64,000 bases of DNA from the NCBI GenBank assembly GCA_046297095.1, contig JBKCNS010000022.1:153175-217174 (forward strand), given 5' to 3'. Source of the DNA: Candidatus Kapaibacterium sp. GTDB taxonomy: Bacteria; Bacteroidota; Ignavibacteria; Kapaibacteriales; NICIL-2. Under the pieces are notes generated by a model, which ran no database searches, was not told where the DNA came from, and worked only from the letters and a program-made list of their open reading frames with translations. The translations under genes and the position numbers were made by a program. This document shows, piece by piece, positions 11,984-64,000 of this stretch (position 1 is the first letter of the stretch; the number at the start of each line of letters is the position of its first letter).

Positions 11984-12016
11984 AACAATGCACGGAGATT
12001 CACGTCGCACCGGTAT

Positions 12017-13298
12017 GAAACCCATACAACAGTTATTGGCAAGTATAACTCTGGCTCTAGTGATCGTCGCAATGGGTGGGAAGTTGCACGCGCAGACCTT
12101 ACTTATACCGATGGACGCCCGCTCGCAGACAGATCATCTTAAAGCATACGGGATTGTATACTGGATTCTCACGAATAATCAGCCGGTAGACTGGTTGCTT
12201 AATTACCGCGGGGGTTCATTTATGTGCACGTCGACGCCGGCTATTGCGGCTGAATGCAGGGTGCGCGGCGTTAGCTTCGAGACACTTGATGGTTCGTCTG
12301 TGGCCTCTGTGTTGGCTGAAGTGCAGAGCGACAAAAGCAATATGGATGTGGTTAAACTGGAGAAAGCTCCGCGTGTGGCCGTGTATCAACCGCCGGGTTT
12401 TCGACCCTGGGACGACGCCGTAACCTTGGCAATGGAGTACGCCGAGATTAAGTACGACAAGATTTGGGACGAAGAGGTGATGAAAGGGAAGTTGTCTGAG
12501 TACGACTGGCTGCACCTTCATCACGAGGACTTTACCGGCCAGCACGGAAAGTTCTTTAATAATTATGCTAATGCACCCTGGTACATCGCTCAGGTGCAAC
12601 TGTTGGAGAATACCGCGCGCAAACTCGGATTTGCCAAAGTTCCGGAACTAAAGAAAGCGGTGGTGGAGAAGATACGCAGCTACATAGCCGAAGGCGGCTT
12701 CATGTTTGCAATGTGTACGGCTACAGACACCTACGATATTGCTCAAGCGGCAAAGAATACCGACATAGTAGAGAGCATTCTGGATGGCGACCCCTCAGAC
12801 CCCTCGGCGCAGGACAAACTGGACTTTACGCGAACCTTTGCCTTCGAGAATTTTCATGTGATAACGAGTCCCTTCATTGTGGAATACTCGGACATCGATG
12901 TGGACCCTTCGTTGCTTATTCCGCAGCAATCCACGGACTATTTTACTCTCTTTGATTTCTCGGCAAAGTACGATCCCGTGCCCACAATGCTTACTCAGTG
13001 CCACGTGAATCTGGTGCGCGGCTTTCTTGGGCAAACAACATTGTTCAAAAAAGAGTTCTTGAAAAAGTCGGTCACCGTGCTGGCAGAGATGGACGGTAAG
13101 GGCTGGGCAAAGTACATTCACGGAAACTATGGCCGCGGCACATTCACCTGGTACGGCGGGCACGACCCCGAGGATTATCAGCATGCGGTGGGAGATCCTC
13201 CTACCGATTTAGCGCTACACAAGAATTCACCCGGGTACCGATTGATTCTGAACAACGTCCTCTTCCCGGCAGCGAAAAAGAAAAAGCAGAAAACGTAA
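12017..13298 (+). CDS. Hypothetical exported protein, possibly class-I glutamine-amidotransferase-like fold
   Basis: Signal peptide MKPIQQLLASITLALVIVAMGGKLHAQ starts at the internal Met; the ORF opens at 11952 and overlaps the end of glgP. No confident family assignment. Motifs VAVYQPPGF...WLHLHHEDF...GGFMFAMCTATD are reminiscent of ThuA/GATase1-like proteins. Confidence 0.6.
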
Positions 13299-44771: not shown

Positions 44772-44810
44772 AGACATCGTAAAGATGTTCTCAGAGCGAC
44801 TGCTACAGTC

Positions 44811-44826
44811 AAAAAATCGATTTTTT
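44811..44826. promoter_or_regulatory. Perfect 16-bp palindrome AAAAAATCGATTTTTT about 95 bp upstream of the DUF4295-rpmE-rpsR cluster; candidate operator or UP-like element
   Basis: Seen directly. Symmetric A6-ATCGAT-T6. Confidence 0.4.
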
Positions 44827-44921
44827 GGCGATTTCTGTGTGCAAGCGCCGAAAAACTTTGAAAAAACCGACGTGCAGTCTATATTTGCAGTCTTATTCAA
44901 CCACAAGAGTAGTAAAGCGCA

Positions 44922-45095
44922 ATGGCAAAGCAGCAGACCTTTCAGGACAAGCTCAAGAAAATGAAGACCGATTCGCGCGTCAACGTGCGAGTTATCAAGG
45001 CGTATCGCGGAGACAAAGGTTCCGTGAAGTTTGTAGAGCGCTTTGTTAAGGTTGACGACGCAAATCAGATAGAAAAGATTGATATTTCACGATAA
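44922..45095 (+). CDS. DUF4295-like small basic protein (57 aa), below the ORF-track size cut-off
   Basis: Hand-translated to MAKQQTFQDKLKKMKTDSRVNVRVIKAYRGDKGSVKFVERFVKVDDANQIEKIDISR. Resembles the small DUF4295 proteins that accompany ribosomal-protein genes in Bacteroidota. Confidence 0.6.
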   Translation: MAKQQTFQDKLKKMKTDSRVNVRVIKAYRGDKGSVKFVERFVKVDDANQIEKIDISR

Positions 45096-45106
45096 CGTAG
45101 AAGCGT

Positions 45107-45340
45107 ATGAAAAAGGGAATACATCCCTCGTATAAAGAAGTTACGGTACACATGACCGACGGTACGTCGTTTGTTACCCGTTCCTGCTATAAGGGCGAAA
45201 AGATGGTTTTGGAAATTGATTCCAAGTCGCACCCGTTTTTTACCGGCAAGCAAATGTTGGTAGACACGGCCGGCCGTGTAGATAGATTTAAGAAGCGTGC
45301 AGAGCGCTCTAAGGCAATCAAAGAAAAAGGAGAAGCATAA
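45107..45340 (+). CDS. rpmE: 50S ribosomal protein L31, type B (zinc-ribbon-less form)
   Basis: MKKGIHPSYKEV...DSKSHPFFTGKQ...TAGRVDRF. Only one Cys is present, with SKSH in place of CxxC. This is the YkgM-like type B form. Confidence 0.9.
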   Translation: MKKGIHPSYKEVTVHMTDGTSFVTRSCYKGEKMVLEIDSKSHPFFTGKQMLVDTAGRVDRFKKRAERSKAIKEKGEA

Positions 45341-45342
45341 CA

Positions 45343-45636
45343 ATGGCAATGCAACGCAACCAAAACGACGTTTTGCAACCACCGATGGCAGCGGCATCTT
45401 CGCCGTTCAGAAATCGCCAGCAGGTAGTTCGTAAGAAAACCAGCCCGATGAAGGAGTCACGTATCGTTGACTATCTTGATCACAAGTTTTTGTCTCGCTT
45501 TATCAACGATCAAGGTAAGATTCTTCCTCGTCGTATCACCGGATTGACCGCGTTTCAACAGCGCGAGATCTCCCGCGCGGTAAAGTATGCTCGTCACCTT
45601 GCTTTGATTCCTTTCGTAGCACAGGATACGAAGTAA
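45343..45636 (+). CDS. rpsR: 30S ribosomal protein S18 (Cys-free; long N-terminal extension)
   Basis: ...IVDYLDHKFLSRFINDQGKILPRRITGLTAFQQREISRAVKYARHLALIPFV matches the S18 core. Not adjacent to rpsF or rplI. Confidence 0.85.
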   Translation: MAMQRNQNDVLQPPMAAASSPFRNRQQVVRKKTSPMKESRIVDYLDHKFLSRFINDQGKILPRRITGLTAFQQREISRAVKYARHLALIPFVAQDTK

Positions 45637-45712
45637 CGTCGCTATTGTGCGAATCGTTGAGCATCACCGAATGCTCTTCATCATGATTCGAACACACGCA
45701 GACCAAACATTG

Positions 45713-45749
45713 AAAAGACCGTCTCTATCCAGAGGCGGTCTTTTTTTTT
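45713..45749 (+). terminator. Rho-independent terminator after rpsR
   Basis: AAAGACCGTCTC-tatcca-GAGGCGGTCTTT followed by a T9 run. Confidence 0.8.
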
Positions 45750-45750
45750 C

Positions 45751-46436
45751 TGCATGGTGTTTGAACCGTAGCAACCGTAGCAGTGAGAATTGCTGAATCG
45801 ATATGTTCGGCTGCTGCTCCAATCCGGTTTGAATCCGGCTTACGTCTTAGTCACTGCTTACGTACCTCTCGCTTAAGTACTTACTCGTAACTCAATGCTA
45901 GTTCGTTGTGAGGCACCTCACTGCACGCCACTCAGAGCTTTGGTCGGTACAGCAGTGCTTGAGCAAAACAGGAGGGTTCGCTAGCCCTGCCGAACACAGC
46001 CGGCCCGAGAGAGTATATGACAAACAAGTGTTTAGGTCCTGATGAGACGGGTAAACAACTAATCATGTTTGTTCGGGACTTGCATTTACAAGTGCACCGT
46101 CGCAGACTTTTTTAGCAAAAAAAAGCGCCTGAAAAAGCTTGAAGCCGGAATGGTAAAAAAATTTTTCCCCAGGGCATCTGCCCGCCAGAGCGCATCAATA
46201 CTACGTTGTGGAAAACTATGAGATATGCAAGCGGAATATTTCATTTCGATGAAATTTTCTTCTTTGAGAGACGTTTCGTGAGCATGATCTTTGCGCCGAC
46301 GTAAAGATACCTGCACGTTGTGCACGTGATGTTGGGAATGAGACCATCGGTTATCAACAGGGGAGACCACGGTCCATCGAGAGTTCCCGGCGTGTGTGCA
46401 TACACTATCCGAACATGTAATTGAACGAGGTGAACA
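45751..46436. other. Candidate chromosomal replication origin (oriC) upstream of dnaA
   Basis: 686-bp non-coding region. An AT-rich tract spans 46106..46165. DnaA-box-like 9-mers TGTGGAAAA (46207) and TTATCAACA (46350) each differ by 1 mismatch from TTATCCACA. A palindrome ATTTCAT-ttcg-ATGAAAT lies at 46239..46256. Confidence 0.5.
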
Positions 46437-47948
46437 TTGGCCAAGAAGTCCGATGCGCTTAACCTGTTTCCGCAGGCAGCTCAGAATAATATCACCGCGC
46501 CTCGCAAGACAGGAGGTCGCGCGAAAGAAACAAACGCTTCGAGCACGGAGCTAGATAGGATTTGGAAACAGTGCCTGGAAATTATCCGGGACAATGTTTC
46601 AGTTCAAGTTTTCAAAACTTGGTTTGAGCCCATCAGAGCTCTTAGCTTCGATGGTGCAGATATTATTGTTGAAGTACCCAGCCAGTTTTATTACGAATGG
46701 CTTGAAGAGCATTACACGACGCTGATTCAGCGCAGCGTGGCACAGACCTTCGGCTCGAAGGTTCATTTAAAGTATCAGGTGGTGATGGATACCACCACGG
46801 AATCTTTGGAAGAGCGTACCGTGATTCTTCCGGCGATGCGTCACGGCACACAGGGCGCAGTGCAGTCCAAGATTCCTTTTGCAGCCGGCTCAACGGATGC
46901 GCCGTCTAATCACGCCAGCTTCCTGAACCCTCGATATACCTTTGATAACTTCGTCAGCGGAGACAGCAATCAGTTGGCGTTCTCGGCATCGGTAGCGGTA
47001 ACGGAAAGCGCCGGTAAATCTCGTTACAACCCACTGGTGATCTACGGAAAAACCGGCCTTGGCAAAACGCACTTGGTACAGGCAATCGGTAATCGCATTG
47101 TGGAAAAGAACAAGCGTGCACGGGTATTGTACACTACCAGTGAGCGATTTACTATGGAGTATGTGAGCGCTCTGCAAACCAACCGCTTCAATGAGTTCAC
47201 TGCCTATTACCGTAGCATGGATGTGTTGATCATCGACGACATCCAATTTTTTGCGGGCAAAGAGAAAACACAGGATAATTTCTTCCATACCTTCAACGCT
47301 TTGCTCCAGGCGGGCAAGCAGATTATTCTGACCAGCGACGTAGCACCGGGCGACTTGCGCGATGTGGATGCACGTTTGATCTCGCGCTTCCAGTGGGGCC
47401 TTACTGCCGACATTCAGTCTCCTGATTACGAAATGCGTCTTGCGATTGTCAATAAAAAGAGCGCCGACGAAGGATTGCAGCTGCCGGACGAAATTGCCGA
47501 GTACATTGCACGCCACGTAACCTCGAGCATTCGTCAGATAGAGGGCTGTTTGATCCGCCTGTTTGCCAGCGTATCGCTGGATAATCGCCGCATCAGTTTG
47601 CCCCTGGTTCAAGAGGTAGTGAACTCCGTGATTGGCGAGCCGCGTCAACGGCCCTTACACATGGAGGATATCAAGATTTTGGTTGCTTCGTACTACAACT
47701 TGCCTGTGGAGCTTTTGGCCGGCAAGACACGCAAGCACGAGATCGTGCTAGCACGTCAAGTGGCTATGTACCTTGCCAAGCAGTTGACGAATCTCTCACT
47801 GAAATCCATTGGCTCGTACTTTGGCGGCCGCGATCACACAACCGTACTGCACTCTATTCAGATGATTGAGAATTACTTCGACACTGACCAGACTGTGACA
47901 CAATCTGTAGAGCACCTGCATCGTAAGCTGAGTGTGAAGCTGCAGTAA
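46437..47948 (+). CDS. dnaA: Chromosomal replication initiator protein DnaA
   Basis: TTG start. Walker A VIYGKTGLGKTHLVQA. The sensor and C-terminal DNA-binding helix-turn-helix ...LAGKTRKHEIVLARQVAMYLAKQLT... are present. Confidence 0.9.
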   Translation: MAKKSDALNLFPQAAQNNITAPRKTGGRAKETNASSTELDRIWKQCLEIIRDNVSVQVFKTWFEPIRALSFDGADIIVEVPSQFYYEWLEEHYTTLIQRSVAQTFGSKVHLKYQVVMDTTTESLEERTVILPAMRHGTQGAVQSKIPFAAGSTDAPSNHASFLNPRYTFDNFVSGDSNQLAFSASVAVTESAGKSRYNPLVIYGKTGLGKTHLVQAIGNRIVEKNKRARVLYTTSERFTMEYVSALQTNRFNEFTAYYRSMDVLIIDDIQFFAGKEKTQDNFFHTFNALLQAGKQIILTSDVAPGDLRDVDARLISRFQWGLTADIQSPDYEMRLAIVNKKSADEGLQLPDEIAEYIARHVTSSIRQIEGCLIRLFASVSLDNRRISLPLVQEVVNSVIGEPRQRPLHMEDIKILVASYYNLPVELLAGKTRKHEIVLARQVAMYLAKQLTNLSLKSIGSYFGGRDHTTVLHSIQMIENYFDTDQTVTQSVEHLHRKLSVKLQ

Positions 47949-50866: not shown

Positions 50867-53800
50867 ATGAAGCACTCAATCTCAGTGGGTTCTTTTATCC
50901 TGGCGATGTTTGTACTCGTCTCGATTGGCCAAGCACAGAGCTTGTCGAGTTATGTTTTCTCCTCCACGTCTTCCACGTATACGACTATTATAGGTCAAGG
51001 TGGAACCACATTGGTTTTCGACCCCGGAGTTAACTCCGACGATGATGACGGTTATTATACAGGCATACCCATCGGATTTAATTTCAGCTATTTGGGAAAT
51101 TCCTACTCTACCATGGCTTCGTGTGCCAACGGATTTGCCATGCTTGGCGGTACGAATGTGAGCGGCAGTTCTTGGGTGCCCGATCTTTCCGGTAGTTCCG
51201 GGTCGTCCGGACGTCCGGTGCTCGCGCCATTTTGGTCGGACATGCAATTGATTAGTGGAACAGGAGGATCGTCCCTAGGGTATCGTACCGATGGATCTGC
51301 CCCTAACCGTGTCTTTACGCTGGAGTGGAATAAACTTGAATGGACCTACACCTCAGCAGTATTGTCTGTATCGTTTCAGATAAAGCTGTACGAGGCATCG
51401 GGAGCAGTCGAGTACTTGTACAATCAGGAAGCCACACAAACATCTACTCAATCAGTTGGCATCGGTATAACATCCGCCGGTACCGGCGCAGGTTCATACT
51501 GGGCAATTCAGGACAACAACTTTAATACAGTAAGCGGAACGGCAACGGGAAGTGTTTCAGCTCGCCCCGCCTCCGGTACTCGTTTGTCGTGGGTGCCTAT
51601 TTCCACTGCACTTTCTACTCCTACAGCATTTAATGCAACAAACGTTACATCGAGCAGTATGACTGTTTCATGGACAAACAATGCTGCATCAGCATATGCA
51701 GCGGGAGTGTTTATCTCAACGGACAACAACACGTTTACCTACCGCGGATTTACTCCGATGAGCGGCACCGGTACCTACTCCATGAATATGTCGGGATTGA
51801 CCGGAAACACATTGTACTACTACAGAATTTATGCGCTATCCTCCGAGGGTACAAGCGCAGCACTCACCGGTTCGCAGTCCACTGCTTCAGGTACATTGTC
51901 CGGAGTGCGCCAGATCCCTTCCTCCTCGTATCCTACAATCAAGAGTGCTATCGACAGCTTGAACGCATACGGCTTGGCGGGTGCACTTACATTCGAGTTG
52001 CTCTCGAGTTACACAAGCACTGCCGAGACCTATCCGTTGGTTATTGGCTCTATAGCTGGATCGTCTGCAAACAATGTAGTGACCTTCCGTCCGGCATCCG
52101 ACGTTTCGTCGGTGTTGAATATTACCGGATCAAACTCGACGGCACTCATTCAGTTCAATGGTGCAAAGTATGTTCGTATTGATGGTCGTCCGGGTGGAAC
52201 GGGCACCACCAGCGTGTTGAATATTGAAAACACATTGGTGGGCACATCAGCAACCATTCGATTCACCAACGATGCTTCTTACGATACCGTGCGGTATTGT
52301 ACCATTAGAAGTGCGAACTCATCCACAACCACGTCGGGTACTATCTTTTTTGGTTCGCCAACAGTGAACGGAAACAGTTACAATTCCATTGCGAATTGTA
52401 CTATTCGTGAGCTCACAAGCGGTTCAACTCCTTCTTGTGCCGTATACATCTCGGGTAGTTCATCCGCTGTTTCAACAAACAACAGTTTGCTGAATAACAA
52501 CATTGCAAACTTCGCGGGTACATCCACCGTGTACGCTATATACAGCTCTAGCTCGTACACCAACAACTGGACGATTTCGGGCAACAGCTTTTACCAAACG
52601 GCTGCGCGTACATACTCGAGTACCTTCGCTTGTATTTATATGTCCGAAACCGGCGGCGTGTCGGGCCTTGGAAATGCCATCAACAACAACTTCATTGGTG
52701 GTACAGGCCCCGGTTGCAGCGGATCGGCATGGAGCTCCACTCATTCCAGCACATGGTATGCAATTTTTTCGCCAGGATCGTCCTCCAGTAATGGCAGTAG
52801 AACATTCAACGGAAATACGATCACGAATATGAACGTGACTACCAGTAGTACAACGTTCTATCCTATCTATGTATACAACACCAACCTCACGATAAATAAC
52901 AATACCATTGGCAGCTCAAGTGCCACCGGTGCGATAAATCTTACATACACAGGAACCGGTACGGTTACCGTGTATGCCATTTACGCGTATCCGGCGTCGA
53001 GCTTGAATCAGAATGTGAATGTAAACAACAATGTGATCGGTGGTATCAACTGTTCCAGCACCTCTACGGGAGGTTTTGGATTTAATGGGGTTTGGATTGG
53101 CTCTACCATTGGAGGATCTACGTCGACCGTCTCCAACAATCTTATTGGAAGTACATCCGTAGCAAACTCAATCACTCTTCCGAGCACTTCCGGTGCAGCA
53201 TCTCTTTTCCGGGGCATTTATGCAGCATCAAGCACCGGCGCGTTTGCGCTTACAGTGGACAACAACACAATTGCGAACGTAAGGAACAACAGTACCTTTA
53301 CCACTTCTGGTGGTGCGTTTATGTTCGGTTTTTTTGGCGCAAGTGGTATCCACTACGTGACAAACAACAATATTTACAACCTGACGAGCGCAAACAACAA
53401 CCCAAGTTCCACCAACACCTCGATGTGTATAGTGGGCGTAAACGAGGCATCGTCGACGTCTCCTTCCGGGTTGAACGGTCACATTATCAGTGGTAACAAA
53501 ATATACGGGCTCTTTAACGCTAACGCAGCAGCGTCCTCCAATTGGTTGGTTGGTATGAATGTGGCGGGTGCCAGTGCCAGCACGCGCGTGCTGATTGAGA
53601 ATAATTTCGTTCACAGCTTCGCATACCAGAGCACTAATTCAAACATCATGGTTGGTGTTCTTACGTACACAATACCTGCGTTTGTTGTCAACAACAATGT
53701 GCGTTTCGGAATTGATGCATCAGGATCCTCCGTCACGAATCCTGTCAGCATGTACGGTATCTACAAAAACGGAACATTGCCCACCACCATCGCCTATAAC

Positions 53801-56800
53801 AGTATTTACATTGGTGGCTCGAATGTTACTGGAACCGGCAGCACATTCTGCTTATGGCGTAATGGTTTACCGGCCTCAGGTTCGGATAATATTCGCAACA
53901 ACATCATGCACAATGCGCGCACAAATGGAAGCGGCACTGGTGGTCATGTGTGTGTTCTGATCGGCAATACATCAGCAACAACGAACGCAGTTGCAGCATC
54001 GAATCTGGTGTTGAACAATAATCTCTACTATCACTCCGGTGCAGGAGGTATTGTCGGAGCAATACAATTGAGTGCCGGAATTACAGGGTACACGAGCATG
54101 CAGGCGTGGAGCGGCGTTTCCTCTCACGATGGAGCATCCGGATACGCATCACCGAATTTCGTTTATCCTATAGGTACCAGCGCAAATGTGAATTTGCATA
54201 TCAACGGAACTACCGCCGCTCGTGGTGGTGGTGTGCCTATTTCGGGAGTGACTACAGATTACGACGGAGATTCACGTCCATCGGTGTTTACCGATATTGG
54301 TTCAGACCAATGTTCAAGCTGTAACGCCAACGACATTTTCCCGCCGACGATTGCATATACAGCGTTGCCCAATGGTATCACGGAAGCCACACGGTCCGTA
54401 TCGGGTATCAGCGTTGTGGACTATTCCGGCGTAAATGTCAACTCCGGCAGCCGCCCCCGTGTGTACTACAAGAAGTCCACCGATCAAAATCAGTTTGTAG
54501 GTAACACCAGCACCGATAATGGTTGGAAGTGGGTAGAGGCAACGAACACCGCTTCGCCATTCACGTTCACGGTAAACTATGGTCTGTTGCAGTCCGGAGT
54601 GAGCGTAGGCGATACCATACAGTACTTTGTCGTAGCGGAAGATGTTATTGCTACTCCCAATGTGGGTGTTAATGCATGTGCGTTCACCACATACCCATCT
54701 ACCGTGAACCTCACCAATGCTGCATTCCCGGCCGGAAACTTTAGATCGTATGTGATTAGCAGTACCATCAGCGGAACGGTGAACGTGGGCCCCGCAGAGA
54801 CAATTACGTCACTTACTAATGCAGGTGGTCTGTTTGATGTAATTAATCAGCGCGTGGTGACAGGAAATATCAACGTGGTCATTACAGGAAACCTTACAGC
54901 GGAAAGCGGTACGGTTGCCCTCAATCAAACCGCTGAGTACGGCAGTGGTAATTATTCAATTACTATTCGTCCTTCTGCCGGAGCTCCGGATACGGTTAGC
55001 GGTTCGTATGCCGGCGGATTGATTCGTTTGAATGGCGCCGATAGAGTTGTCATCGATGGTCGTCCGGACGCATCGAGCACCGCTCGCATGTTGACGTTTA
55101 TCAACACGGCAACGTCCGGTAGTGTTGCAACCATTCAGCTTATTAGTCAGGGAACCGGTTTCGGTTGCGTGAGTGATACAGTGCGCTATTGCAATATCAG
55201 AAGTGGTTCTCGTTCAAATTCTAGCTCATATCTGCTGGTATCAGGTGGAACCACCATTAATTCGGCGGGAGATGACAACGACAAGCTTGCCGTCATGAAT
55301 AACCATTTCGCCTCGGCGTATTATGGTGTGAGAATACTGGGAAGCGGTGCGGGAGCACACGATAGCATTAATGTATCCGGAAATCAGTTCAGTTGGCCCG
55401 GTTCGGCAACACCGGTTGCAGATACCCTGTCTCATTCATCGTTGTTTGTTTCTAACGCATATGTTGCTTCTGTTCGTAACAACACGTTCCGCGACATTTC
55501 CCATCTTGCCAGCACCGTGCCGGTTGTGAGTTTTGATAACAGCCAATTCGTGAATTTCGAAGCTAATGTATTGGATAACGTAGGGGGCTTTTCGTCTTCG
55601 GGTTACAATGTCATTGGAATTACCATTGGAAGCAATGTTCGCAACTCGATGTTCGTGCGAAATACAATTAATAACTTATGCTACAGGAGTACTGGCAACT
55701 GGTATGCCTATGCAATCAACGTAAACACCGGTGTTCAAACATCCAATGTGGTGATTGCGAACAATGTCATCTCGACCATAGCTCATGATTACGGAACATC
55801 CACGACGTTCGTCACGAACGGTTTGCGTATTACCTCTACGGGTGGTATAAAGATTTATAACAATTCGTTCCTGTTGCGCGGACCGTACTTCAACATGAGT
55901 TCTACTGCGCAAAGCTATTGTGTGATGATTCTCACGGGTTGCTCTAACCTGGAGCTCGTCAATAACATCTTTTCGAACAGAATGTACGGCTTCTCAGGCT
56001 CGAAGTCGTACGCATTGTATCTGGGAGCCACCGGTCAACTGGCGGCTAACGATTACAATATCTATGATGTAACTCTTGGTACAACCCAAGGAGTGATTGC
56101 AAGCCTTGCAGGTACCGATATAACATCGTTGGCAGCCTTGAGAACCTCAATTGGCGGTGAAGCCAACTCGATGGCAGTCCCCGTGATGTACAAGGACAGC
56201 TCTGCCACTGCGGATCTGCACTTAACAATGCAGGAGCCCACGCTTCGTGGTTCGTCCGCGGTCAGCTCCACCATCAACACCGATTTTGATGGTTATACGC
56301 GTACACGCTATCTAATAGGTGCCGACGAAGTAACGCCGGTTATGAACATTTCTCAACAACCCTCGTCAACATCGAAGTGCGAGGGCGAGTCCTTTACGCT
56401 TACCGCCGCGCTGACTACTCCGGTGGCCTTCGACGACGGCGTAGCGAGAAGTTCAACCATCAGTTACCAATGGTACAAGGGATCCAGTGCTATAGCAGGT
56501 GCTACGGATGCGTCTTATACGGTTTCGTCATCAACAACAGCTAATGCAGGTAGCTACACGGTACGCATATTCTCGTCGACAATAGACTCGGTGGTAAGTA
56601 ACGCCGCTGTTGTGACAATTAATACGCTGCCCAATATCACACAACAGCCGTCGGATGTGTCTCGCTGTCTTGGCACCTTGACCACCTTGTCCGGCGCGGC
56701 TACCGGTACAGGCATTACGTATCAATGGCAAAAGCAGAACGGTGCAAGTTGGTCCGATGTTTCCGGTGCTACCGGTTCAACGTTCACAATACCCTCGATG

Positions 56801-59800
56801 ACTGCCGGTGATTACGGCAGCTACAGATTTGTCGTGACCGGTACCTGTGCACCCGCTGCAACGTCGAACACCGCTACCATCACCCAATTGACCTCAACAT
56901 CGATTAGCGCTCAGCCTTCAGCCACTCCGTCAAGTGTGTGCTTGGGCGGAAGCTTTACGTTGTCCGTAACAGCGACTGCATCGAACATTGGCTATCAATG
57001 GAGAAGAAACGGTGTATCGATTTCCGGAGCAACGAACGCGACCTTTACCGTAACCAATGCACAACTCAGCGACTTCGCTACATATAGTGTGGCGGTATCG
57101 GGCGATTGCGGCGTGATAGTTTCGAGTAACGTTGCTGTAACTCAAGTGGCTGCCACCGCAATTACTTCGCAGCCGTCGAGCACCACGCCTCAAGTATGTC
57201 TGGGTGCTCCGTTTACAGTTACTGTCAGTGCTACCGGTGCATCGCTTGGCTATCAGTGGCAGCGTAACGGAACAGCTATCACCGGTGCCACAAACGCGTC
57301 GTTCACAGTTGCTGCGGCAACGTTGGCAGACTTCGCTTCCTATACGGTATCGGTAACGGGAACTTGCGGTACGGTGAATTCTCAAGCAGTAACCATCGTT
57401 CAGATTCCTTCCACCGTAATCACTGCTCAGCCTGCGTCAACAAACACATTGTGTTCCGGTTCTACACTCACTCTCAGTGTGGTAGCAACGGGTGCTAATC
57501 TTTCGTATCAATGGCAAAAACAATCGGGCGCCAGCTTTAACGCTATTTCCGGTGCCACCGGATCTTCCCTTACCATTGGATCGATCGTTCCGTCGGATGC
57601 CGGCACGTATCGTGTTGTAGTGACAGGAACTTGCGGCGCGGTGAATTCGTCGAATTCGGTGTTGGTTGTCACCACACCTGTTTCAATTACTTCGCAGCCG
57701 TCATGGTCGTTCCCGAATGCATGTACGGGTGAGTCGACAACAATTAGCATGTCTGCCTCGGGAACTATTACCTCATATCAATGGCAAAAGTTCGATGGTT
57801 CCTCGTGGCAGAATCTGAGCGGGGCTACCTCTAACTCCTATACCATAGCATCATTGACTATGGCTGATGCAGGCGGTTATCGCATTCAGATTGAAGGACC
57901 CTGCAGCCCTACCACGGTTTCCAATCAGGCAACGTTGACTGTTCAACAAAATGTTCAGATCAATGCTCAGCCCGGTCCTCAAACAGCATGTGTGGGCTCA
58001 TCGATCAGTTACTCGGTAACCACCATAGGTACGGTTGTAGGTTATCAGTGGGAGCAAGACAGACTGCGTAACGGATCATGGACTACCATTCCGGGAGCAA
58101 CAAGCGCTACGTACACCAAATCCGGTGTAACAGCCGCCGATTCAGGTTTGTACCGCGTGAAGGTTACCGGTAACTGTAGCGCCATTCCTGTGGTGTCGAG
58201 CAGCGCCTCTGCAACTATTCAGAGTATCTACAACATTACATCTCAGCCTTCGTGGCCTGCCACACCAACAAACGTAGGCACGGTGGTATCTATGTCCGTA
58301 GGGTTTACGGGTTCGGCAAACTTCCAGTGGCAGCGCGATCAACAACGCTCGGGTAACTGGGTGAATGTAGGTACCAACGCATCCGTGTACTCATTTACCA
58401 TTACATCAGTGGCAGACTCCGGTAACTATCGTTGTGTAGTATCCGGACCGTGCGGAGCGGTTACGCAAAACACAAACATTGTTGCTGTATATACTTGTCA
58501 ACCACCGGTCGTTACCAATCAACCGGCCACTCCTCAACCTGTTTGCGCAGGCGGTGCATTTTCATTGAGTGTTGCCGTGAACTCCAACGGTCAGGCCGTA
58601 ACATATCAGTGGCAGTTGGATGCCACACGTACCGGCAGCTACACCAATATCCCCGGTGCAACCAATGCATCGTATATCAAGACCAATGTTCAAACAAGCG
58701 ACGACGGTATGTATCGCGTACAGGTAACAAGCGCTTGTGCCGTTACACCCGTTTACAGCAATGCTGTATCATTTGTCGTTCTCTCGGCAAATCTTGTGCT
58801 TAGCCATCCTAGTTCTGCTACCGTGTGCGGTGGCTCGAATGTAACGATGAGTGTTTCTGCAGGTGGAGCCAGCCCGTCGTATCAGTGGTTCTACAACGGA
58901 GCTCCGATGAATGTGGGACAAAACCCCACGGCTCAAACGGCTAATCTCCAGTTGACCAACGTAACACCCGGCATGGCCGGTTCCTATCGTTGCTTTGTTA
59001 CCGGTCCTTGTTCACCGAACGGTGTGTTCTCCAACATTGCAACACTTACCGTTAATACACCGGTTATGCAGTTGCAGCCGCAATCACAAACCGGTTGCGT
59101 GGGTACTCCTGTTACTTTCAACGTTCAGGTGTTAGGATCGGGTCTTGCTTATCAGTGGCGCAAGAACAGCGTTGCAATTGCCGGAGCAACCGATGCTTCG
59201 TATACCATTGCAAGCCCGGTTGTAGCAGATGCCGGAACGTACAGCGTTGTTGCGTCGAATACATGCGGCACGGTGACCTCAGCTAATGCAGTGCTTACGA
59301 TGACAGTTCCTGCGGCCTTCACTTCGCAGCCTTCATCGCAGAGTATCTGCCGCGGATCTAATCTTACATTGTCGGTGGGTATTAATTCCGATGCAACCAC
59401 GCCTACCTATCAATGGAGGCTCAATGGCAGTAACCTGCCGTTGTCCGCATACCCCAGCGCCAATACTCCGGTGTTGACGATCAATAACATCCAAGCAACA
59501 GAGGCAGGAAGCTACACATGTAGCGTAGTTACACCTTGTCAGCCTTTAGGCACGGTGTCGGCCGCTGCGGTAGTGACGGTAAATCCGAACACATCCATTT
59601 CACAACAACCGAGCGGAACAACGGTCTGCGAAGGCAACCCGGTAACATTTGTTGTCGGAGCAGGCGGAGTTTCTTTGGGTTATCAGTGGCTCAAGGATGG
59701 CTCGCCTATAGCCGGAGCTACAAACAGCATCTATATTATCACGAACACAGTAGGCATTGATAACGGTAATTACTCGGCGGTTGTAAGCGGCACATGTGCT

Positions 59801-62023
59801 CCTACACCGATCACATCGAATGCTGCAACGCTGGTAGTGAACACCAATCCGCGTATCACCGCAGCTCCGGTTGCCGGTCGCGCGGCATGTCAGGGATCTA
59901 CCGTTACCTTTAGTACCGGTGCTTCCGGTACCGGTCTGGTGTATCGCTGGAGATTTAATGGCAGTACCATTACCGGCAATGCGTCGGCATCTACTCCCAC
60001 GCTTGTAGTGACGGGAATCACGGGTGCTAATGCAGGAGCGTACGATTGCGTAATCACGGGATCGTGTAGCACCACCGGCGTTACAACGAATGCAGGTATT
60101 CTGACTATCAATACACCGGTTTCTATTAGCTCACAACCTGCAAGCCAGGTAGTATGCTCACGTGCAGATGTAGTCTTCACAGTTGCGAATGTGGGAACAG
60201 GCGCAGTATATCAGTGGCGTTATAATGGTGTATCGATTAACGGTAATCCCTCTGCTGTAACCAACCGACTCACTCTAAGCGGAGTAACCACATCAAACGC
60301 AGGTTTGTATGACGTGGTGATTTCCGGTACGTGTAACACCGTTACAAGTTTGCCGGCAGCTTTGGGAGTTCAGAATGTGCTCAGTATCACATCGCAACCC
60401 GAGCCCAGCCGTATTTGTGCAGGTTCAACTCTGCAAGCAACGGTAGCGGCAACAGGAACGATCTTGGGATATCAATGGCAGAAAGACGGCGTAAATATTC
60501 CGGGTCAGAATTCGGCAACACTTACAATCTCGGGCGCCAGCGTGGCTCAATCAGGTGGATATCGTTGTGTGATTTCCGGTAGCGCTGCATGCGGTACCGC
60601 ACTTCAGGTTTCGAACACCGTTGAAATGATTGTAGGAACTGCAGCAACCATTACCAAGCAGCCTTCGAACGTAGCAGTATCGTTCGGCTCTACCGTAAGT
60701 GCGCAAGTTGATGCTTCGGGATTGGGCTATGGTGTTAACAACACGCTGCAGTACTCATGGTTCAAGGGTTCAACACGACTTGCCGATGGTTCGCGATTCA
60801 GCGGAACAGGTACAAGTGTACTAACCATCCGTGGTGTACAGCCTTCAGATATCGGTAATGATTACTACGTAGTGGTGAGCGGCGTTTGCGGCAACACAAC
60901 ATCAAATCAGTTCGCGTTGTTTGTACCGGCGGTGAATATCACCGGCCAACCGCAAGCAGCCGAGTTGTGTGCAGGTCAAAGCACGGTGTTCTCGGTAGTT
61001 GCAGTGCCTAATCCTTCCACTAGCCAACTCTCGTATCAATGGTTCCGCGGCACAACGCGTTTGAGTGACGGACCCAACGTAACGGGATCGGCAACATCGA
61101 GCATGACAGTAAGCAACGTTAGTGCAACCGATGCCGGCGATTATACCTGCGAGATCACCGTACAACCCGGCGGCTCGCGCGTTACAACATCCATCGCGAA
61201 ACTTACCGTGAATACTCAACCTTCCATTACTGCACAGCCTGCAGACCAGGCGGTGTGCGATGGTTCAGCATTGAACCTTAGCGTAACCGGTGCAGGTGGC
61301 AGCTTGCAGTATCAGTGGAAGAAGGGTGGTACGGATATCGGCGGCGCTACGGCTTCGTCCTATACCGTATCGGCCAGCAGTGCGGCTGATGCAGGCACCT
61401 ACACCGTAACCGTACGAAACGGCTGCGGCACGGTGACATCGCAATCGGTCACAGTGAGCATTTCAACGAAGCCCACAATTACCACGCAGCCTACTGCAAC
61501 ACAAACAGTGGTGGTAGGCGGTACCCTAACCCTGAGCACAACAGCAACGGGCAGTGGCACACTTAAATATCAATGGAAGCAGAACGGCAACGCAATTGCG
61601 GGAGCCACCAATGCTACGTATACGAAGTCGCCGGCATCGAAGAACGATGAAGGTACCTATGTGTGCGAGGTGACCAATGATTGCGGAGCCGTAAGCACAA
61701 GCAATGCAGCAGTAAGTGTCTCCACCACCAGCATCACCGACGCTGAAGTGTACGGCTATATGCTTGGCACTCCCGAACCGAACCCGATGGGCGAGGTAGC
61801 ATCCTTGAAGGTACGAGTACCGCTAAGCGGTGCCGTTCGACTGGATCTCAGTGATATGTCGGGTAGGGTGGTAGCAACCCTTATCGATGGCGTTCTTGAT
61901 GCAGGCGAGCACACAGAAGTGCTGAGCGCATCACGAAACAATCTTGGTTCGGGTGTGTATACACTGCGTCTTGTAACATCGGAAGGATACGTAACAACGA
62001 AGCGATTAGTTATTGTTCGCTAA
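50867..62023 (+). CDS. Giant (3718 aa) T9SS-secreted surface protein: N-terminal FN3 plus beta-helix-like region, about 20 tandem Ig (I-set-like) domains, C-terminal T9SS CTD
   Basis: Signal peptide MKHSISVGSFILAMFVLVSIGQAQ. An FN3-like segment reads ...SSMTVSWTNN...LYYYRIYALS. About 20 repeats of about 88 aa each carry Cys...YQWxKxG...GATxxxYTI...DxGxYxCxVxxxCG. The C-terminus ...GVYTLRLVTSEGYVTTKRLVIVR is a T9SS CTD. Confidence 0.9.
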   Translation: MKHSISVGSFILAMFVLVSIGQAQSLSSYVFSSTSSTYTTIIGQGGTTLVFDPGVNSDDDDGYYTGIPIGFNFSYLGNSYSTMASCANGFAMLGGTNVSGSSWVPDLSGSSGSSGRPVLAPFWSDMQLISGTGGSSLGYRTDGSAPNRVFTLEWNKLEWTYTSAVLSVSFQIKLYEASGAVEYLYNQEATQTSTQSVGIGITSAGTGAGSYWAIQDNNFNTVSGTATGSVSARPASGTRLSWVPISTALSTPTAFNATNVTSSSMTVSWTNNAASAYAAGVFISTDNNTFTYRGFTPMSGTGTYSMNMSGLTGNTLYYYRIYALSSEGTSAALTGSQSTASGTLSGVRQIPSSSYPTIKSAIDSLNAYGLAGALTFELLSSYTSTAETYPLVIGSIAGSSANNVVTFRPASDVSSVLNITGSNSTALIQFNGAKYVRIDGRPGGTGTTSVLNIENTLVGTSATIRFTNDASYDTVRYCTIRSANSSTTTSGTIFFGSPTVNGNSYNSIANCTIRELTSGSTPSCAVYISGSSSAVSTNNSLLNNNIANFAGTSTVYAIYSSSSYTNNWTISGNSFYQTAARTYSSTFACIYMSETGGVSGLGNAINNNFIGGTGPGCSGSAWSSTHSSTWYAIFSPGSSSSNGSRTFNGNTITNMNVTTSSTTFYPIYVYNTNLTINNNTIGSSSATGAINLTYTGTGTVTVYAIYAYPASSLNQNVNVNNNVIGGINCSSTSTGGFGFNGVWIGSTIGGSTSTVSNNLIGSTSVANSITLPSTSGAASLFRGIYAASSTGAFALTVDNNTIANVRNNSTFTTSGGAFMFGFFGASGIHYVTNNNIYNLTSANNNPSSTNTSMCIVGVNEASSTSPSGLNGHIISGNKIYGLFNANAAASSNWLVGMNVAGASASTRVLIENNFVHSFAYQSTNSNIMVGVLTYTIPAFVVNNNVRFGIDASGSSVTNPVSMYGIYKNGTLPTTIAYNSIYIGGSNVTGTGSTFCLWRNGLPASGSDNIRNNIMHNARTNGSGTGGHVCVLIGNTSATTNAVAASNLVLNNNLYYHSGAGGIVGAIQLSAGITGYTSMQAWSGVSSHDGASGYASPNFVYPIGTSANVNLHINGTTAARGGGVPISGVTTDYDGDSRPSVFTDIGSDQCSSCNANDIFPPTIAYTALPNGITEATRSVSGISVVDYSGVNVNSGSRPRVYYKKSTDQNQFVGNTSTDNGWKWVEATNTASPFTFTVNYGLLQSGVSVGDTIQYFVVAEDVIATPNVGVNACAFTTYPSTVNLTNAAFPAGNFRSYVISSTISGTVNVGPAETITSLTNAGGLFDVINQRVVTGNINVVITGNLTAESGTVALNQTAEYGSGNYSITIRPSAGAPDTVSGSYAGGLIRLNGADRVVIDGRPDASSTARMLTFINTATSGSVATIQLISQGTGFGCVSDTVRYCNIRSGSRSNSSSYLLVSGGTTINSAGDDNDKLAVMNNHFASAYYGVRILGSGAGAHDSINVSGNQFSWPGSATPVADTLSHSSLFVSNAYVASVRNNTFRDISHLASTVPVVSFDNSQFVNFEANVLDNVGGFSSSGYNVIGITIGSNVRNSMFVRNTINNLCYRSTGNWYAYAINVNTGVQTSNVVIANNVISTIAHDYGTSTTFVTNGLRITSTGGIKIYNNSFLLRGPYFNMSSTAQSYCVMILTGCSNLELVNNIFSNRMYGFSGSKSYALYLGATGQLAANDYNIYDVTLGTTQGVIASLAGTDITSLAALRTSIGGEANSMAVPVMYKDSSATADLHLTMQEPTLRGSSAVSSTINTDFDGYTRTRYLIGADEVTPVMNISQQPSSTSKCEGESFTLTAALTTPVAFDDGVARSSTISYQWYKGSSAIAGATDASYTVSSSTTANAGSYTVRIFSSTIDSVVSNAAVVTINTLPNITQQPSDVSRCLGTLTTLSGAATGTGITYQWQKQNGASWSDVSGATGSTFTIPSMTAGDYGSYRFVVTGTCAPAATSNTATITQLTSTSISAQPSATPSSVCLGGSFTLSVTATASNIGYQWRRNGVSISGATNATFTVTNAQLSDFATYSVAVSGDCGVIVSSNVAVTQVAATAITSQPSSTTPQVCLGAPFTVTVSATGASLGYQWQRNGTAITGATNASFTVAAATLADFASYTVSVTGTCGTVNSQAVTIVQIPSTVITAQPASTNTLCSGSTLTLSVVATGANLSYQWQKQSGASFNAISGATGSSLTIGSIVPSDAGTYRVVVTGTCGAVNSSNSVLVVTTPVSITSQPSWSFPNACTGESTTISMSASGTITSYQWQKFDGSSWQNLSGATSNSYTIASLTMADAGGYRIQIEGPCSPTTVSNQATLTVQQNVQINAQPGPQTACVGSSISYSVTTIGTVVGYQWEQDRLRNGSWTTIPGATSATYTKSGVTAADSGLYRVKVTGNCSAIPVVSSSASATIQSIYNITSQPSWPATPTNVGTVVSMSVGFTGSANFQWQRDQQRSGNWVNVGTNASVYSFTITSVADSGNYRCVVSGPCGAVTQNTNIVAVYTCQPPVVTNQPATPQPVCAGGAFSLSVAVNSNGQAVTYQWQLDATRTGSYTNIPGATNASYIKTNVQTSDDGMYRVQVTSACAVTPVYSNAVSFVVLSANLVLSHPSSATVCGGSNVTMSVSAGGASPSYQWFYNGAPMNVGQNPTAQTANLQLTNVTPGMAGSYRCFVTGPCSPNGVFSNIATLTVNTPVMQLQPQSQTGCVGTPVTFNVQVLGSGLAYQWRKNSVAIAGATDASYTIASPVVADAGTYSVVASNTCGTVTSANAVLTMTVPAAFTSQPSSQSICRGSNLTLSVGINSDATTPTYQWRLNGSNLPLSAYPSANTPVLTINNIQATEAGSYTCSVVTPCQPLGTVSAAAVVTVNPNTSISQQPSGTTVCEGNPVTFVVGAGGVSLGYQWLKDGSPIAGATNSIYIITNTVGIDNGNYSAVVSGTCAPTPITSNAATLVVNTNPRITAAPVAGRAACQGSTVTFSTGASGTGLVYRWRFNGSTITGNASASTPTLVVTGITGANAGAYDCVITGSCSTTGVTTNAGILTINTPVSISSQPASQVVCSRADVVFTVANVGTGAVYQWRYNGVSINGNPSAVTNRLTLSGVTTSNAGLYDVVISGTCNTVTSLPAALGVQNVLSITSQPEPSRICAGSTLQATVAATGTILGYQWQKDGVNIPGQNSATLTISGASVAQSGGYRCVISGSAACGTALQVSNTVEMIVGTAATITKQPSNVAVSFGSTVSAQVDASGLGYGVNNTLQYSWFKGSTRLADGSRFSGTGTSVLTIRGVQPSDIGNDYYVVVSGVCGNTTSNQFALFVPAVNITGQPQAAELCAGQSTVFSVVAVPNPSTSQLSYQWFRGTTRLSDGPNVTGSATSSMTVSNVSATDAGDYTCEITVQPGGSRVTTSIAKLTVNTQPSITAQPADQAVCDGSALNLSVTGAGGSLQYQWKKGGTDIGGATASSYTVSASSAADAGTYTVTVRNGCGTVTSQSVTVSISTKPTITTQPTATQTVVVGGTLTLSTTATGSGTLKYQWKQNGNAIAGATNATYTKSPASKNDEGTYVCEVTNDCGAVSTSNAAVSVSTTSITDAEVYGYMLGTPEPNPMGEVASLKVRVPLSGAVRLDLSDMSGRVVATLIDGVLDAGEHTEVLSASRNNLGSGVYTLRLVTSEGYVTTKRLVIVR

Positions 62024-62057
62024 GAAGGGAACGGTATCCGTCAACATCGGTTTTTCC

Positions 62058-62100
62058 TCAACGGGATGTTCGCTGTGCGAGCATCCCGTTGATGTTTGTA
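62058..62100 (+). terminator. Candidate terminator hairpin after the giant gene
   Basis: TCAACGGGATG-(13-nt loop)-CATCCCGTTGA gives a 10-11 bp perfect stem. The T-tail is weak (ATGTTTGT). Confidence 0.4.
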
Positions 62101-62217
62101 GCCGGCGTCTGCCCGTAGTGTTGTTCGAAAGGCCGGAATCTTCGTGAATCTTAAATGGATGTTGAAGAAAAAAGTAGTAGGTTGATGTGTAGGATATATT
62201 ATTCATGGAATAAAGTT

Positions 62218-62955
62218 ATGACAAAGGCATCGCGGTTTTTTTTCATGCAGATGCGGAACTGTTTTGGAACTGCCTCGGTTGCTTGCAGGTATGCTGCAGG
62301 AACAACGCTTTGTGTGGTAGTGAGTTTTGTTACCTCGTGCGGAAATCTAGAACTGCCCTTAGCTTACGATCGCGGCCCATGCGGGGACAATGTTGATACC
62401 ACCTCAGTAAACTCGTACATCTTTACCATGCCTCGCACTGATGTGGTGGTGAGAGTGGGAACGCAGCAGCAGTTCTGGACGACTATCGAAGAACTGAGCT
62501 GTACATCCGTTCGATATACCTTGAGCAAGGCGCTGGGAAGCGTGGATGCAAGCGGCTTGTACACAGCGCCAACAACCTTGGCCACGAATAGCGATTCAGT
62601 GTGGTTGTATGTTCAATCCTATGCCAAGAGATCGCTGATGGACACTGTTCTTATCGTGGTGGAGAAGAAGTATGCAGACTGCACTCCCGATGCGGTTACG
62701 TATTCGGGTACAATCGAGCCCTTGATGCAGGAACATTGCACGGGTTGTCATTCCTCGCAGAGTTATACAAAATCTGGCGGGGGAGTGCTTCTGGAAACCT
62801 ATGCAGACGTGCGGCGCAGCGCATTGGAAGGACGGCTGCTTGCTACCATCGATTATGTAAGTCCCTACAAGATGCCGAAGAACTCCCTTCGGCTGGACAG
62901 CTGTAGCATCGAAGCTGTACGTAGCTGGATAGTGAAAGGAGCTCTGAATGACTAA
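62218..62955 (+). CDS. Lipoprotein with a BIG2-like Ig domain and a C-terminal mono-heme cytochrome c domain (PSCyt1/Planctomycete-cytochrome-C-like)
   Basis: Lipobox ...VVSFVTSCGN. Heme-binding CTGCH is followed by YKMPK (Met ligand) and ...WIVKGA, the expected ending of the PSCyt1 domain. The start is uncertain (ORF opens at 62155; Met candidates at 62218, 62245 and 62251). Confidence 0.7.
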   Translation: MTKASRFFFMQMRNCFGTASVACRYAAGTTLCVVVSFVTSCGNLELPLAYDRGPCGDNVDTTSVNSYIFTMPRTDVVVRVGTQQQFWTTIEELSCTSVRYTLSKALGSVDASGLYTAPTTLATNSDSVWLYVQSYAKRSLMDTVLIVVEKKYADCTPDAVTYSGTIEPLMQEHCTGCHSSQSYTKSGGGVLLETYADVRRSALEGRLLATIDYVSPYKMPKNSLRLDSCSIEAVRSWIVKGALND

Positions 62956-64000
62956 CATTATTGCAATTCGTTTTCGAGGCGTAACAATGTGGATAGCTGT
63001 GCTGCTCATGAGTACAGTAGTAACGTTCGCCATTCCTGAGTATTCGTTGCTAACCGGGAATCGATGCATCAACTGTCACGTGAAGGCACAGGGCGGTGGG
63101 TTGCGCAATGATTTGGGATTCTACGCGAACGAGGGAGTGTCGTTGTTCCAGCCGTCGAAGCAGAGTACGCTTGGAGGGTTGTTCTCCAACATGCAGAACA
63201 CAGCACTGGATGGTATTCTCACCTTTGGCTCCGACATTAGGCTCATGAGCGCGCGCTCTGCTGTGTCGCCAATCACTGCCGAACCGCCCAAACGAAAGCT
63301 CTTCCCCATGCAGGTGTCGTTCATGGCTGCACTGCAAGCAGCATCATGGTTAATAGTAGAGGCGCAGTATAATGCAGGGCGCAGCGTGTATCCCGGGCAG
63401 CAGCCGGGCTCAGCGTCGTTGATTGTTCAACCCTCGTTGGATCTGCCGTCGCTGCGAGTAGGATATTTCCAGCCCTCTGTAGGCATCAGTTATGATGATC
63501 ACACTATGCTTGTGCGGCAGGAGCCCGACGCAACGCCGTCGCCGATTATACCGCCGTATTATGCAGAGGCGGGCGCGGAGATCAGATATAACGCACCATT
63601 GTGGCTGGATGTGTCCGCCGGTGTTTTTTCGTCGAAGAATCTTTCCGACGTGTACACTAAAGACAGCGCCGGTCTGGCGCGCTCGTTGATTTCCGGCGCA
63701 GGCAGTCCATTACTTAATGGACGTGTCTGCCTTACTCCTCGCTTCTTCGAAGATCAGGTGAATTCCTATGCAGGAGCATCGATTGTACATTCCGATGACT
63801 TCACCATGATCAACAGTTTTGCCGGAGTGGCATGGCAGGATAAGGTGGGGATACTGATGGAGTCTGTGATGCAGGGTAATCGCGATGCGCGTCAAGTGCG
63901 AGCTGTGTCCTCGGAGTTGTTCGGGCGCGTGGCAGATCCACTGTACGTGTTCGTGCGCATGGAGCACGGTACATCCACCAACGTCATTAAGGGCGAAAGG
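62948..64000 (+). CDS. Cyc2-like fused mono-heme cytochrome c / outer-membrane beta-barrel protein, 3'-truncated by the window edge
   Basis: Not in the ORF track because it has no stop within the window. Read by hand. The ATG at 62948 overlaps the upstream stop by 8 nt. Signal peptide MTNIIAIRFRGVTMWIAVLLMSTVVTFA. CINCH (CxxCH) begins about 10 aa after the predicted cleavage site. More than 300 aa of alternating hydrophobic, beta-strand-like sequence follows with no further heme motifs, and the frame is still open at 64000. Confidence 0.65.
   Translation, partial: MTNIIAIRFRGVTMWIAVLLMSTVVTFAIPEYSLLTGNRCINCHVKAQGGGLRNDLGFYANEGVSLFQPSKQSTLGGLFSNMQNTALDGILTFGSDIRLMSARSAVSPITAEPPKRKLFPMQVSFMAALQAASWLIVEAQYNAGRSVYPGQQPGSASLIVQPSLDLPSLRVGYFQPSVGISYDDHTMLVRQEPDATPSPIIPPYYAEAGAEIRYNAPLWLDVSAGVFSSKNLSDVYTKDSAGLARSLISGAGSPLLNGRVCLTPRFFEDQVNSYAGASIVHSDDFTMINSFAGVAWQDKVGILMESVMQGNRDARQVRAVSSELFGRVADPLYVFVRMEHGTSTNVIKGER

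Follow-up and report, generated by a model that had tools for sequence, protein, structure and literature searches.

The right-hand end of a 64,000-nucleotide stretch of Candidatus Kapaibacterium sp. DNA (contig JBKCNS010000022.1, positions 153,175 to 217,174; the whole stretch is called the window here) carries two overlapping open reading frames, ORF A and ORF B, and raises the question of whether the second encodes the Fe(II) oxidase Cyc2 or a protein of a different kind. A sequence-only reading had taken ORF A for a lipoprotein with a monoheme cytochrome domain and ORF B for a Cyc2-like cytochrome-porin. The best overall explanation, to which we give a probability of roughly 0.6, is that ORF B would encode an outer-membrane fusion of a single heme with a 16-strand-type porin, belonging to an unannotated sister clade of Cyc2 and passing electrons to periplasmic carriers.

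ORF B leaves the window with its frame still open, and it was completed from two close relatives. The protein P0001, 99% identical to the window fragment, has a full length of 398 residues, and the contig L210, which shares 98.6% DNA identity over window positions 61912–64000 and extends beyond them, carries a barrel gene that also encodes 398 residues. Since the L210 gene is complete at this length, the stop or frameshift that might have lain just past the window edge is absent. Both relatives terminate in QLHFYY followed by the stop codon; an aromatic C-terminus such as this is typical of outer-membrane barrels, and almost all complete family members end in the same way (QLH[VIL][FY][YF]). 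At the other end of the protein, inspection shows a basic n-region (Arg9 and Arg11) and a hydrophobic core, then TFA followed by IP at the predicted cleavage site, giving a predicted mature N-terminus of IPEYSLLTGNRCINCH. The sole CxxCH, which reads CINCH, occupies residues 40–44 within the string AIPEYSLLT-GNR-CINCH-VKAQ-GGL, bearing out the earlier claim of a signal peptide followed by a single heme motif at the mature N-terminus.

The fold was examined with an AlphaFold2 model built from a 45-sequence alignment (mean predicted local distance difference test score (pLDDT) 82.8, predicted template modelling score 0.78), in which residues 91–397 form a β-barrel with pLDDT values of about 85–95. 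The completed protein is thus predicted to be a barrel and not soluble, as had been anticipated. Its best structural match is OprP, in keeping with the 16-stranded, OprO/OprP-like barrel of Cyc2, whose structural homologues are OprO and OprP (Keffer et al. 2021, PMC8406198). Identity to these phosphate-selective porins is 13% over the aligned residues, and OprP has no heme-binding extension, whereas ORF B has one; ORF B is also without a Pfam porin match. In 16-strand porins a long loop folds into the lumen, and the long loop between strands 5 and 6 of ORF B, which carries the motif DDHT, is predicted to be this constriction loop. Conserved Arg, Asp and His residues of the family are found on the predicted loop and on the strands.

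From the family at large, it is clear that the heme motif of ORF B did not arise by chance, since exactly one CxxCH is present, at the same position, in every N-terminally complete member (about 190 sequences retrieved). A word-seeded search returned 46 homologues of 380–460 residues, and a profile search of 1.84 billion representatives at 50% identity returned 930 matches at E ≤ 1e-3 and 137 at E ≤ 1e-30. The invariant positions of the close family include Cys40, Cys43, His44, Met121-Gln122 and Asp183-Asp184-His185-Thr186, and its consensus upstream of CxxCH is ALPQFSLLT. Met121, which does not vary among the close relatives, is kept in only 97 of 145 sequences of the wider clade, and 129 of the 145 full-length members carry DDH[TS]. 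The named hosts are mainly Kapabacteria, Ignavibacteria and Latescibacterota (the names found being Kapabacteria/Kapaibacterium, Ignavibacteria, Bacteroidota, Latescibacterota, Bradymonadia and one Didemnitutus bin), and the proteins, where they have a source name, are called 'hypothetical protein' or 'outer membrane protein'. The clade has no Pfam or NCBIfam model, and scans of ORF A and ORF B against both collections gave nothing significant; for ORF B this silence is uninformative, since canonical-motif Cyc2-type proteins are likewise without any match there. A literature search, itself incomplete in coverage, found no account of the clade, of the DDHT motif, or of a module combining a Cyc2-like protein with Rieske and YceI proteins.

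Cyc2 has been defined by a signal peptide, one CXXCH, a porin, a length of at least 365 residues, the motif AXPXFAR[Q/K][T/Y] before the heme motif and PXL four residues after it, with PxFAR[Q/K][T/Y] used as an inclusion filter (Keffer et al. 2021, PMC8406198). ORF B has the signal peptide, the single CXXCH, the porin and, at its length in P0001 and L210, the size, and it lacks both flanking motifs. At the upstream position it reads PEYSLLT, keeping only the A, the P, the aromatic residue and the T with the spacing unchanged, and at the downstream position it reads GGL, with Gly for Pro, four residues after CINCH (VKAQ between). Thus SLL stands for FAR[Q/K] and GGL for PxL, whereas the spacing P-x-aromatic-x3-T-G-x2-CxxCH is identical in the ORF B family and in Cyc2, the shared core being A-x-P-x-aromatic-x3-T-G-x2-CxxCH. 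Like ORF B, the Cyc2 proteins of Acidithiobacillus ferrooxidans and Mariprofundus (Cyc2PV-1) consist of a signal peptide, one CxxCH at the mature start and a porin barrel of about 350 residues, about 400 residues in total, and the barrels of both kinds are structurally closest to OprP.

For a quantitative comparison, genome contigs were scanned with the back-translated Cyc2 motif, yielding 120 canonical loci (among them Mariprofundus, several Zetaproteobacteria, Acidithiobacillus, Chlorobiaceae and one Kapabacteria metagenome-assembled genome (MAG)) and 89 full-length proteins, all of which carry PxFAR[QK][TY]xxxCxxCH and among which Mariprofundus, Zetaproteobacteria and Acidithiobacillus are again represented. 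When our family alignment (A1) was compared with these 89 proteins by hhalign, the probability was 97.5% (E 7e-12) over 328 columns, in register from AxPxF...CxxCH through most of the barrel. The barrel alone gave 90.6% (E 1.3e-6) and the N-terminal 60 residues alone 94.4% (E 9e-8), whereas reversed-sequence controls, in which composition and strand periodicity are preserved, gave a probability of 0.1–0.2%. Distant clade members read ALPRFAARTGAKCxSCH, bridging the ORF B-type and Cyc2 motifs, and a hidden Markov model (HMM) made from the 89 canonical proteins matches such members with E values down to 6e-17 (P0186). ORF B is therefore very probably a fused heme-porin related to Cyc2, and the earlier Cyc2-like assignment stands, although the two defining motifs of the published family are absent.

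The relationship is nevertheless one between separate groups. DDH[TS], on the predicted constriction loop, occurs in none of the 89 canonical proteins, and the nearest relatives of ORF B are barely detected by the canonical HMM; since both features separate them, we file ORF B, as judged from its sequence, in a sister clade within a Cyc2 superfamily and not in Cyc2 as published. Canonical-motif proteins of about 390–400 residues were also seen in a Candidatus Kapabacteria MAG (L022), in Melioribacteraceae (L042 and L048) and in Ignavibacteriaceae (L068), so canonical and DDHT-type heme-porins both exist in Kapabacteria/Ignavibacteria.

The genes around the barrel provide the second line of evidence. 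We collected 79 metagenome loci, together with contigs from an exact protein look-up, and searched their ORFs with neighbour-seeded profiles; grouping the barrels at 80% identity gave 29 clusters that were flanked on each side by at least 1.8 kb of sequence, and a neighbour was counted within 3 kb on the same strand. A Rieske protein was found at 25 of the 29 clusters, a YceI protein at 14, a protein with two transmembrane segments (2-TM) also at 14, and an ORF A-like cytochrome c at 10, with three clusters having none of these. The conserved partner of the barrel family is a Rieske lipoprotein exported by the twin-arginine translocation (TAT) pathway, accompanied by the 2-TM and YceI proteins, whereas ORF A, found at roughly one locus in three, is accessory. 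A cytochrome of the kind that the sequence-only reading had expected as partner thus lies near the barrel at 10 of the 29 clusters, but the Rieske protein is the conserved one. Where the Rieske gene is missing, the next gene downstream often encodes a small cytochrome c, which suggests that the two are interchangeable one-electron partners.

When the same profiles were run on the 120 canonical Cyc2-motif loci, they found Rieske at 5, YceI at 1 and ORF A-like proteins at 0, so the partners of the clade (Rieske lipoprotein, 2-TM plus YceI, PSCyt1-type cytochrome) are not enriched there. The five canonical cases (L088 from Planctomycetota, L020 from Eisenbacteria, L100, L032 and L037) count a Rieske-type ORF at any place within 8 kb of locus; those of L088 and L020 are on the strand of the barrel gene, 0.6–2.3 kb downstream. 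Given these five, the pairing may extend beyond the new clade and is perhaps not exclusive to it.

The clade Rieske partners have a near-universal RREFL twin-arginine signal and a lipobox; their consensus is CTHQGC...CPCH, in which none of the four ligand positions drops below 90% conservation. In sequence they come closest to bc1/b6f Rieske subunits, AioB and sulredoxin, with scores that fall far short of every equivalog cutoff. They share CxHxGC...CxCH boxes and TAT export with the respiratory Rieske proteins (PetA/PetC, AioB, sulredoxin), but are stand-alone lipoproteins with no adjacent cytochrome b or molybdoenzyme. In some loci the 2-TM and YceI proteins are fused into one protein (of 315 residues in L009 at 11175–12122, and also in L135, L137 and L145), and hence probably act together, with YceI tethered to the membrane. 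In L210 the barrel gene is followed, in order, by a 100-residue protein with two hydrophobic segments, a YceI-domain protein, a 167-residue Rieske-like protein (RR signal, lipobox and Rieske-like boxes) and an Ig-repeat protein. Genes for 2-TM, YceI and Rieske-like proteins thus lie directly downstream of the barrel in the window's own species, just past the window, but a terminal oxidase or cupredoxin is not among the adjacent genes.

ORF A itself consists of a signal peptide, a lipobox at Cys41, an immunoglobulin (Ig)-like β domain at residues 60–150 or so and a cytochrome c domain at residues 154–245 with the C-terminal segment CTGCH...YKMPK...WIVKGA. It has eight homologues only, all close and from Kapaibacterium-like sources, in which CxGCH and MP are invariant. 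The match to PF13442 (Cytochrome_CBB3) is marginal (E 0.06), and the AlphaFold model, a poor one (pLDDT 57), shows a β domain followed by three helices. The longer relatives of ORF A, which adjoin other barrels of the family, are more informative: they carry PSCyt1 and Cytochrome_CBB3 above the cutoff, and residues 154–244 of ORF A align to the cytochrome domains of those that pass PF13442 with E values of 1e-15 to 1e-17. By its sequence ORF A is therefore probably a monoheme cytochrome c of the lipoprotein type, with a domain like Cytochrome_CBB3/PSCyt1, which agrees with the earlier description of the upstream gene. The BIG2-like domain also claimed for it fares less well, because residues 60–150 do align to the Ig region of the longer relatives (E 3.5e-9), but ORF A itself has no Pfam match, and only one of the relatives clears the Big_2 cutoff, by 0.4 bit, the others falling below. 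Several of the longer relatives have C-x4-CH in the PSCyt1-like domain, an unusual heme-attachment motif like CxxxCH.

Taken together, an invariant heme beside interchangeable periplasmic one-electron carriers is our main argument that the job of the barrel is electron transfer, and its sequence features and neighbours make trans-outer-membrane electron transfer the probable function. The CxxCH of ORF B would bind heme c, held in or at the pore, where it could swap single electrons with a small soluble redox species entering the pore; by analogy with Cyc2 this species would most likely be Fe2+. A binding site for this species could be provided by the DDHT motif of the constriction loop; otherwise the His of the motif could serve as the sixth ligand of the heme, with Met121 as the alternative ligand. 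The electron would then pass to lipid-anchored periplasmic carriers of the same unit, the ORF A cytochrome c and the TAT-exported Rieske-type lipoprotein encoded beyond the window, which would act as the relay, and the 2-TM and YceI proteins might connect the chain to the quinone pool of the inner membrane. ORF B and its Rieske partner suggest an undescribed route for electrons across the outer membrane. The Fe(II) substrate and the direction of flow we infer from the analogy, and inward Fe(II) oxidation in particular is a tentative proposal, somewhat short of even odds.

Several observations weigh against this explanation. The published Cyc2-defining motifs are absent from ORF B, and the home-made canonical HMM, applied to its closest relatives among 191 sequences, gave E 1e-3 for P0002 and did not list P0001. 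In the model, pLDDT stays under 50 throughout the heme region (residues 22–54), which therefore has no reliable placement in the pore, a result that is unsurprising since the model contains no heme; the strand count by DSSP is ambiguous at 16–18. The Rieske-like partner of the window's own lineage reads CNHQGC in box I and C-x6-C-G-H, not CPCH, in box II, an altered second box compared with the respiratory Rieske proteins; given this sequence, cluster binding is uncertain, and the protein may bind the cluster in another way or fail to bind it. The ORF A homologue of a related Kapaibacterium MAG (L005 9301–9972) carries CLAACH (CxxxCH) where CxxCH would be expected. Genes for a terminal oxidase, a cupredoxin or carbon fixation are not among the adjacent genes. 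To our knowledge, Kapabacteria are not known as iron oxidizers, and neither are Burkholderia, Ralstonia and Xanthomonas. It was from highly sampled genera such as the last three that Cyc2 homologues were pruned in the published survey (Keffer et al. 2021, PMC8406198).

Among the alternatives, the one that survives best is flow in the opposite direction, in which quinol electrons would travel via the membrane-anchored YceI protein and the Rieske protein to the porin heme and on to an acceptor outside the cell or within reach of the pore (for example Fe(III) chelates, humics or reactive oxygen species). Quinol is the native electron donor of bc1/b6f-type Rieske proteins, and the clade partner is nearest to those; YceI is a polyisoprenoid/quinone-binding fold, fused to the 2-TM protein at L009 and elsewhere; and no oxidase is adjacent. 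The unit, however, encodes no cytochrome b-type quinol-binding membrane subunit, YceI and 2-TM are found at only about half of the loci, and Cyc2, the only relative of ORF B that has been studied by experiment, carries electrons inward (Keffer et al. 2021, PMC8406198). We therefore regard outward flow as unlikely.

It is quite unlikely that ORF B is an orthodox Cyc2 Fe(II) oxidase, lithotrophic or detoxifying, that feeds cytochrome c and a terminal oxidase. The architecture, the length class and the OprP-like barrel are those of Cyc2, and the two profiles stay in register over the heme motif and most of the barrel, but ORF B is without PxFAR[Q/K][T/Y] and PxL, and both the DDHT motif (129/145 against 0/89) and the Rieske pairing (25/29 clusters against 5/120 loci) set the clade apart from the canonical proteins. 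In addition, a Cyc2-type protein with the canonical motif is found in at least one Kapabacteria genome (L022), so that the two kinds are more likely to be distinct families.

A third possibility, that the chief role of ORF B is transport, for instance of iron or an anion, with the heme serving in sensing, gating or redox conditioning of the cargo, fits the match to the anion-specific OprP and the conserved Arg, Asp and His residues of the predicted loop and strands, but neither an invariant heme motif nor near-universal one-electron-carrier neighbours would be expected for a plain porin, and we consider it improbable. An incidental CxxCH in a generic outer-membrane or thiol-disulfide protein, to which the lack of a Pfam or NCBIfam match might point, can be rejected with near certainty, because the same databases also miss the canonical-motif Cyc2-type proteins, no member with a complete N-terminus departs from the CxxCH or its flanking motif, and the fold is a barrel and not a thioredoxin; the placement among thiol-disulfide oxidoreductases that would have refuted the sequence-only reading is thus not borne out.

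A multiheme system of the Mtr/Pcc type was likewise considered and rejected, as no multiheme partner is encoded nearby; in the window's lineage the neighbours have at most one CxxCH each. The MtrAB/MtoAB, PioAB and Pcc systems also combine an outer-membrane barrel and c-type heme with periplasmic partners, but in them a separate multiheme cytochrome is threaded through a larger barrel, whereas in ORF B one heme is fused to a porin-sized barrel.

The coordinates of the two genes and of their surroundings are collected in Table 1. The overlap of the two genes, already noted in the sequence-only reading, amounts to 8 nucleotides, since the start of ORF B and the stop of ORF A fall together in ATGACTAA, and an 8-nucleotide overlap is likewise found in the 75%-identical relative L002. 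Because a terminator-like hairpin separates ORF A and ORF B from the large gene before them, the two form a unit of their own. A second possible start of ORF A is the ATG at 62155.

Table 1. Positions of the features discussed, numbered in the window unless another locus is named
Feature	Position	Strand	Basis or remark
3718-residue protein	50867–62023	+	Domain matches: many Ig_3/I-set repeats and an fn3 domain
Terminator-like hairpin, 16-bp stem	62058–62092	+	3′ of the 3718-residue Ig-repeat gene, 5′ of ORF A/ORF B
ORF A, predicted lipoprotein-type monoheme cytochrome c, 245 residues	62218–62955	+	Stop-free translation
ORF A lipobox Cys41 codon	62338–62340	+	Lipobox-like FVTS-C41, after the signal peptide
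ORF A heme-binding CTGCH, residues 174–178	62737–62751	+	CxxCH motif
ORF A Met219, likely distal ligand	62872–62874	+	Conservation; within the invariant MP (YKMPK)
ORF A/ORF B overlap, 8 nucleotides, ATGACTAA	62948–62955	+	ORF B ATG at 62948, ORF A TAA at 62953–62955
ORF B, predicted fused monoheme cytochrome-porin, first 351 of 398 codons	62948–64000	+	Frame open to the window end
ORF B predicted signal peptide, residues 1–28	62948–63031	+	Inspection; ...VVTFA before and IPEY after the cleavage site
ORF B N-terminal heme region, AIPEYSLLTGNRCINCHVKAQGGGLRNDLG	63032–63118	+	CINCH at 63065–63079 inside
ORF B porin β-barrel, part within the window, from about residue 85	63200–64000	+	Predicted structure, pLDDT about 85–95
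ORF B PMQ motif, residues 120–122, strand 2	63305–63313	+	Met121 is the second candidate distal heme ligand
ORF B DDHT motif, residues 183–186, long loop between strands 5 and 6	63494–63505	+	Invariant; predicted constriction loop
Rieske-like gene with C-x6-C-G-H box II, L210	3319–3822		
Rieske-like gene with C-x6-C-G-H box II, L002	12430–13032		
Rieske-like gene with C-x6-C-G-H box II, L005	12528–13034		

The window as a whole is ordinary chromosomal DNA, most likely of a Kapaibacterium-like bacterium, holding dnaA, ftsH, clpP, topA and type-IX-secretion cargo. The tail of the 3718-residue Ig-repeat protein resembles a type-IX-secretion sorting signal by inspection, whereas the Por_Secre_tail model gave no match. 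A giant Ig-repeat gene is also directly upstream of the barrel module in L002 and in L009/L010 (3732 residues) but not in L005, so its place beside the module may be plain synteny rather than a functional link; a further Ig-repeat gene lies 3′ of the module in L210, L002 and L004. A second large type-IX-secretion cargo protein, of 1832 residues with a GEVED domain and a Por_Secre_tail, is encoded at 3714–9212 (+). The roughly 1.6 kb immediately upstream of dnaA (46437–47948), at 44772–46436, contain no ORF of at least 150 residues and no Rfam or tRNA match, and are a possible replication-origin region.

Cyc2 is the main genetic marker for neutrophilic iron oxidizers in genomes and metagenomes. 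Published pipelines screen the candidates for PxFAR[Q/K][T/Y] (Keffer et al. 2021, PMC8406198). Proteins of the ORF B type, which lack this motif despite the same architecture and a detectable common origin, would be dropped by such a filter. If the clade does move electrons across the outer membrane, the list of lineages that exchange electrons with iron or other extracellular species would become longer; a Rieske protein acting as the periplasmic relay of an outer-membrane cytochrome would be a new wiring scheme, and the DDHT loop would offer a concrete mutation target for substrate handling by a monoheme porin. A bolder version, which we put forward as doubtful, is that the clade, the Rieske lipoprotein and the membrane-anchored YceI protein might make up a hitherto unrecognized minimal conduit of three to four components from the cell exterior to the quinone pool/respiratory chain, with neither multiheme cytochromes nor bc1. 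In such a conduit the substrate would bind at the DDHT loop and the Rieske cluster would relay electrons through the periplasm, and its distribution would take in Kapabacteria, Ignavibacteria and Latescibacterota as well as further uncultured lineages, making it widespread. If that is true, marker surveys based on Cyc2 would miss a whole group of iron- (or other metal-) cycling bacteria.

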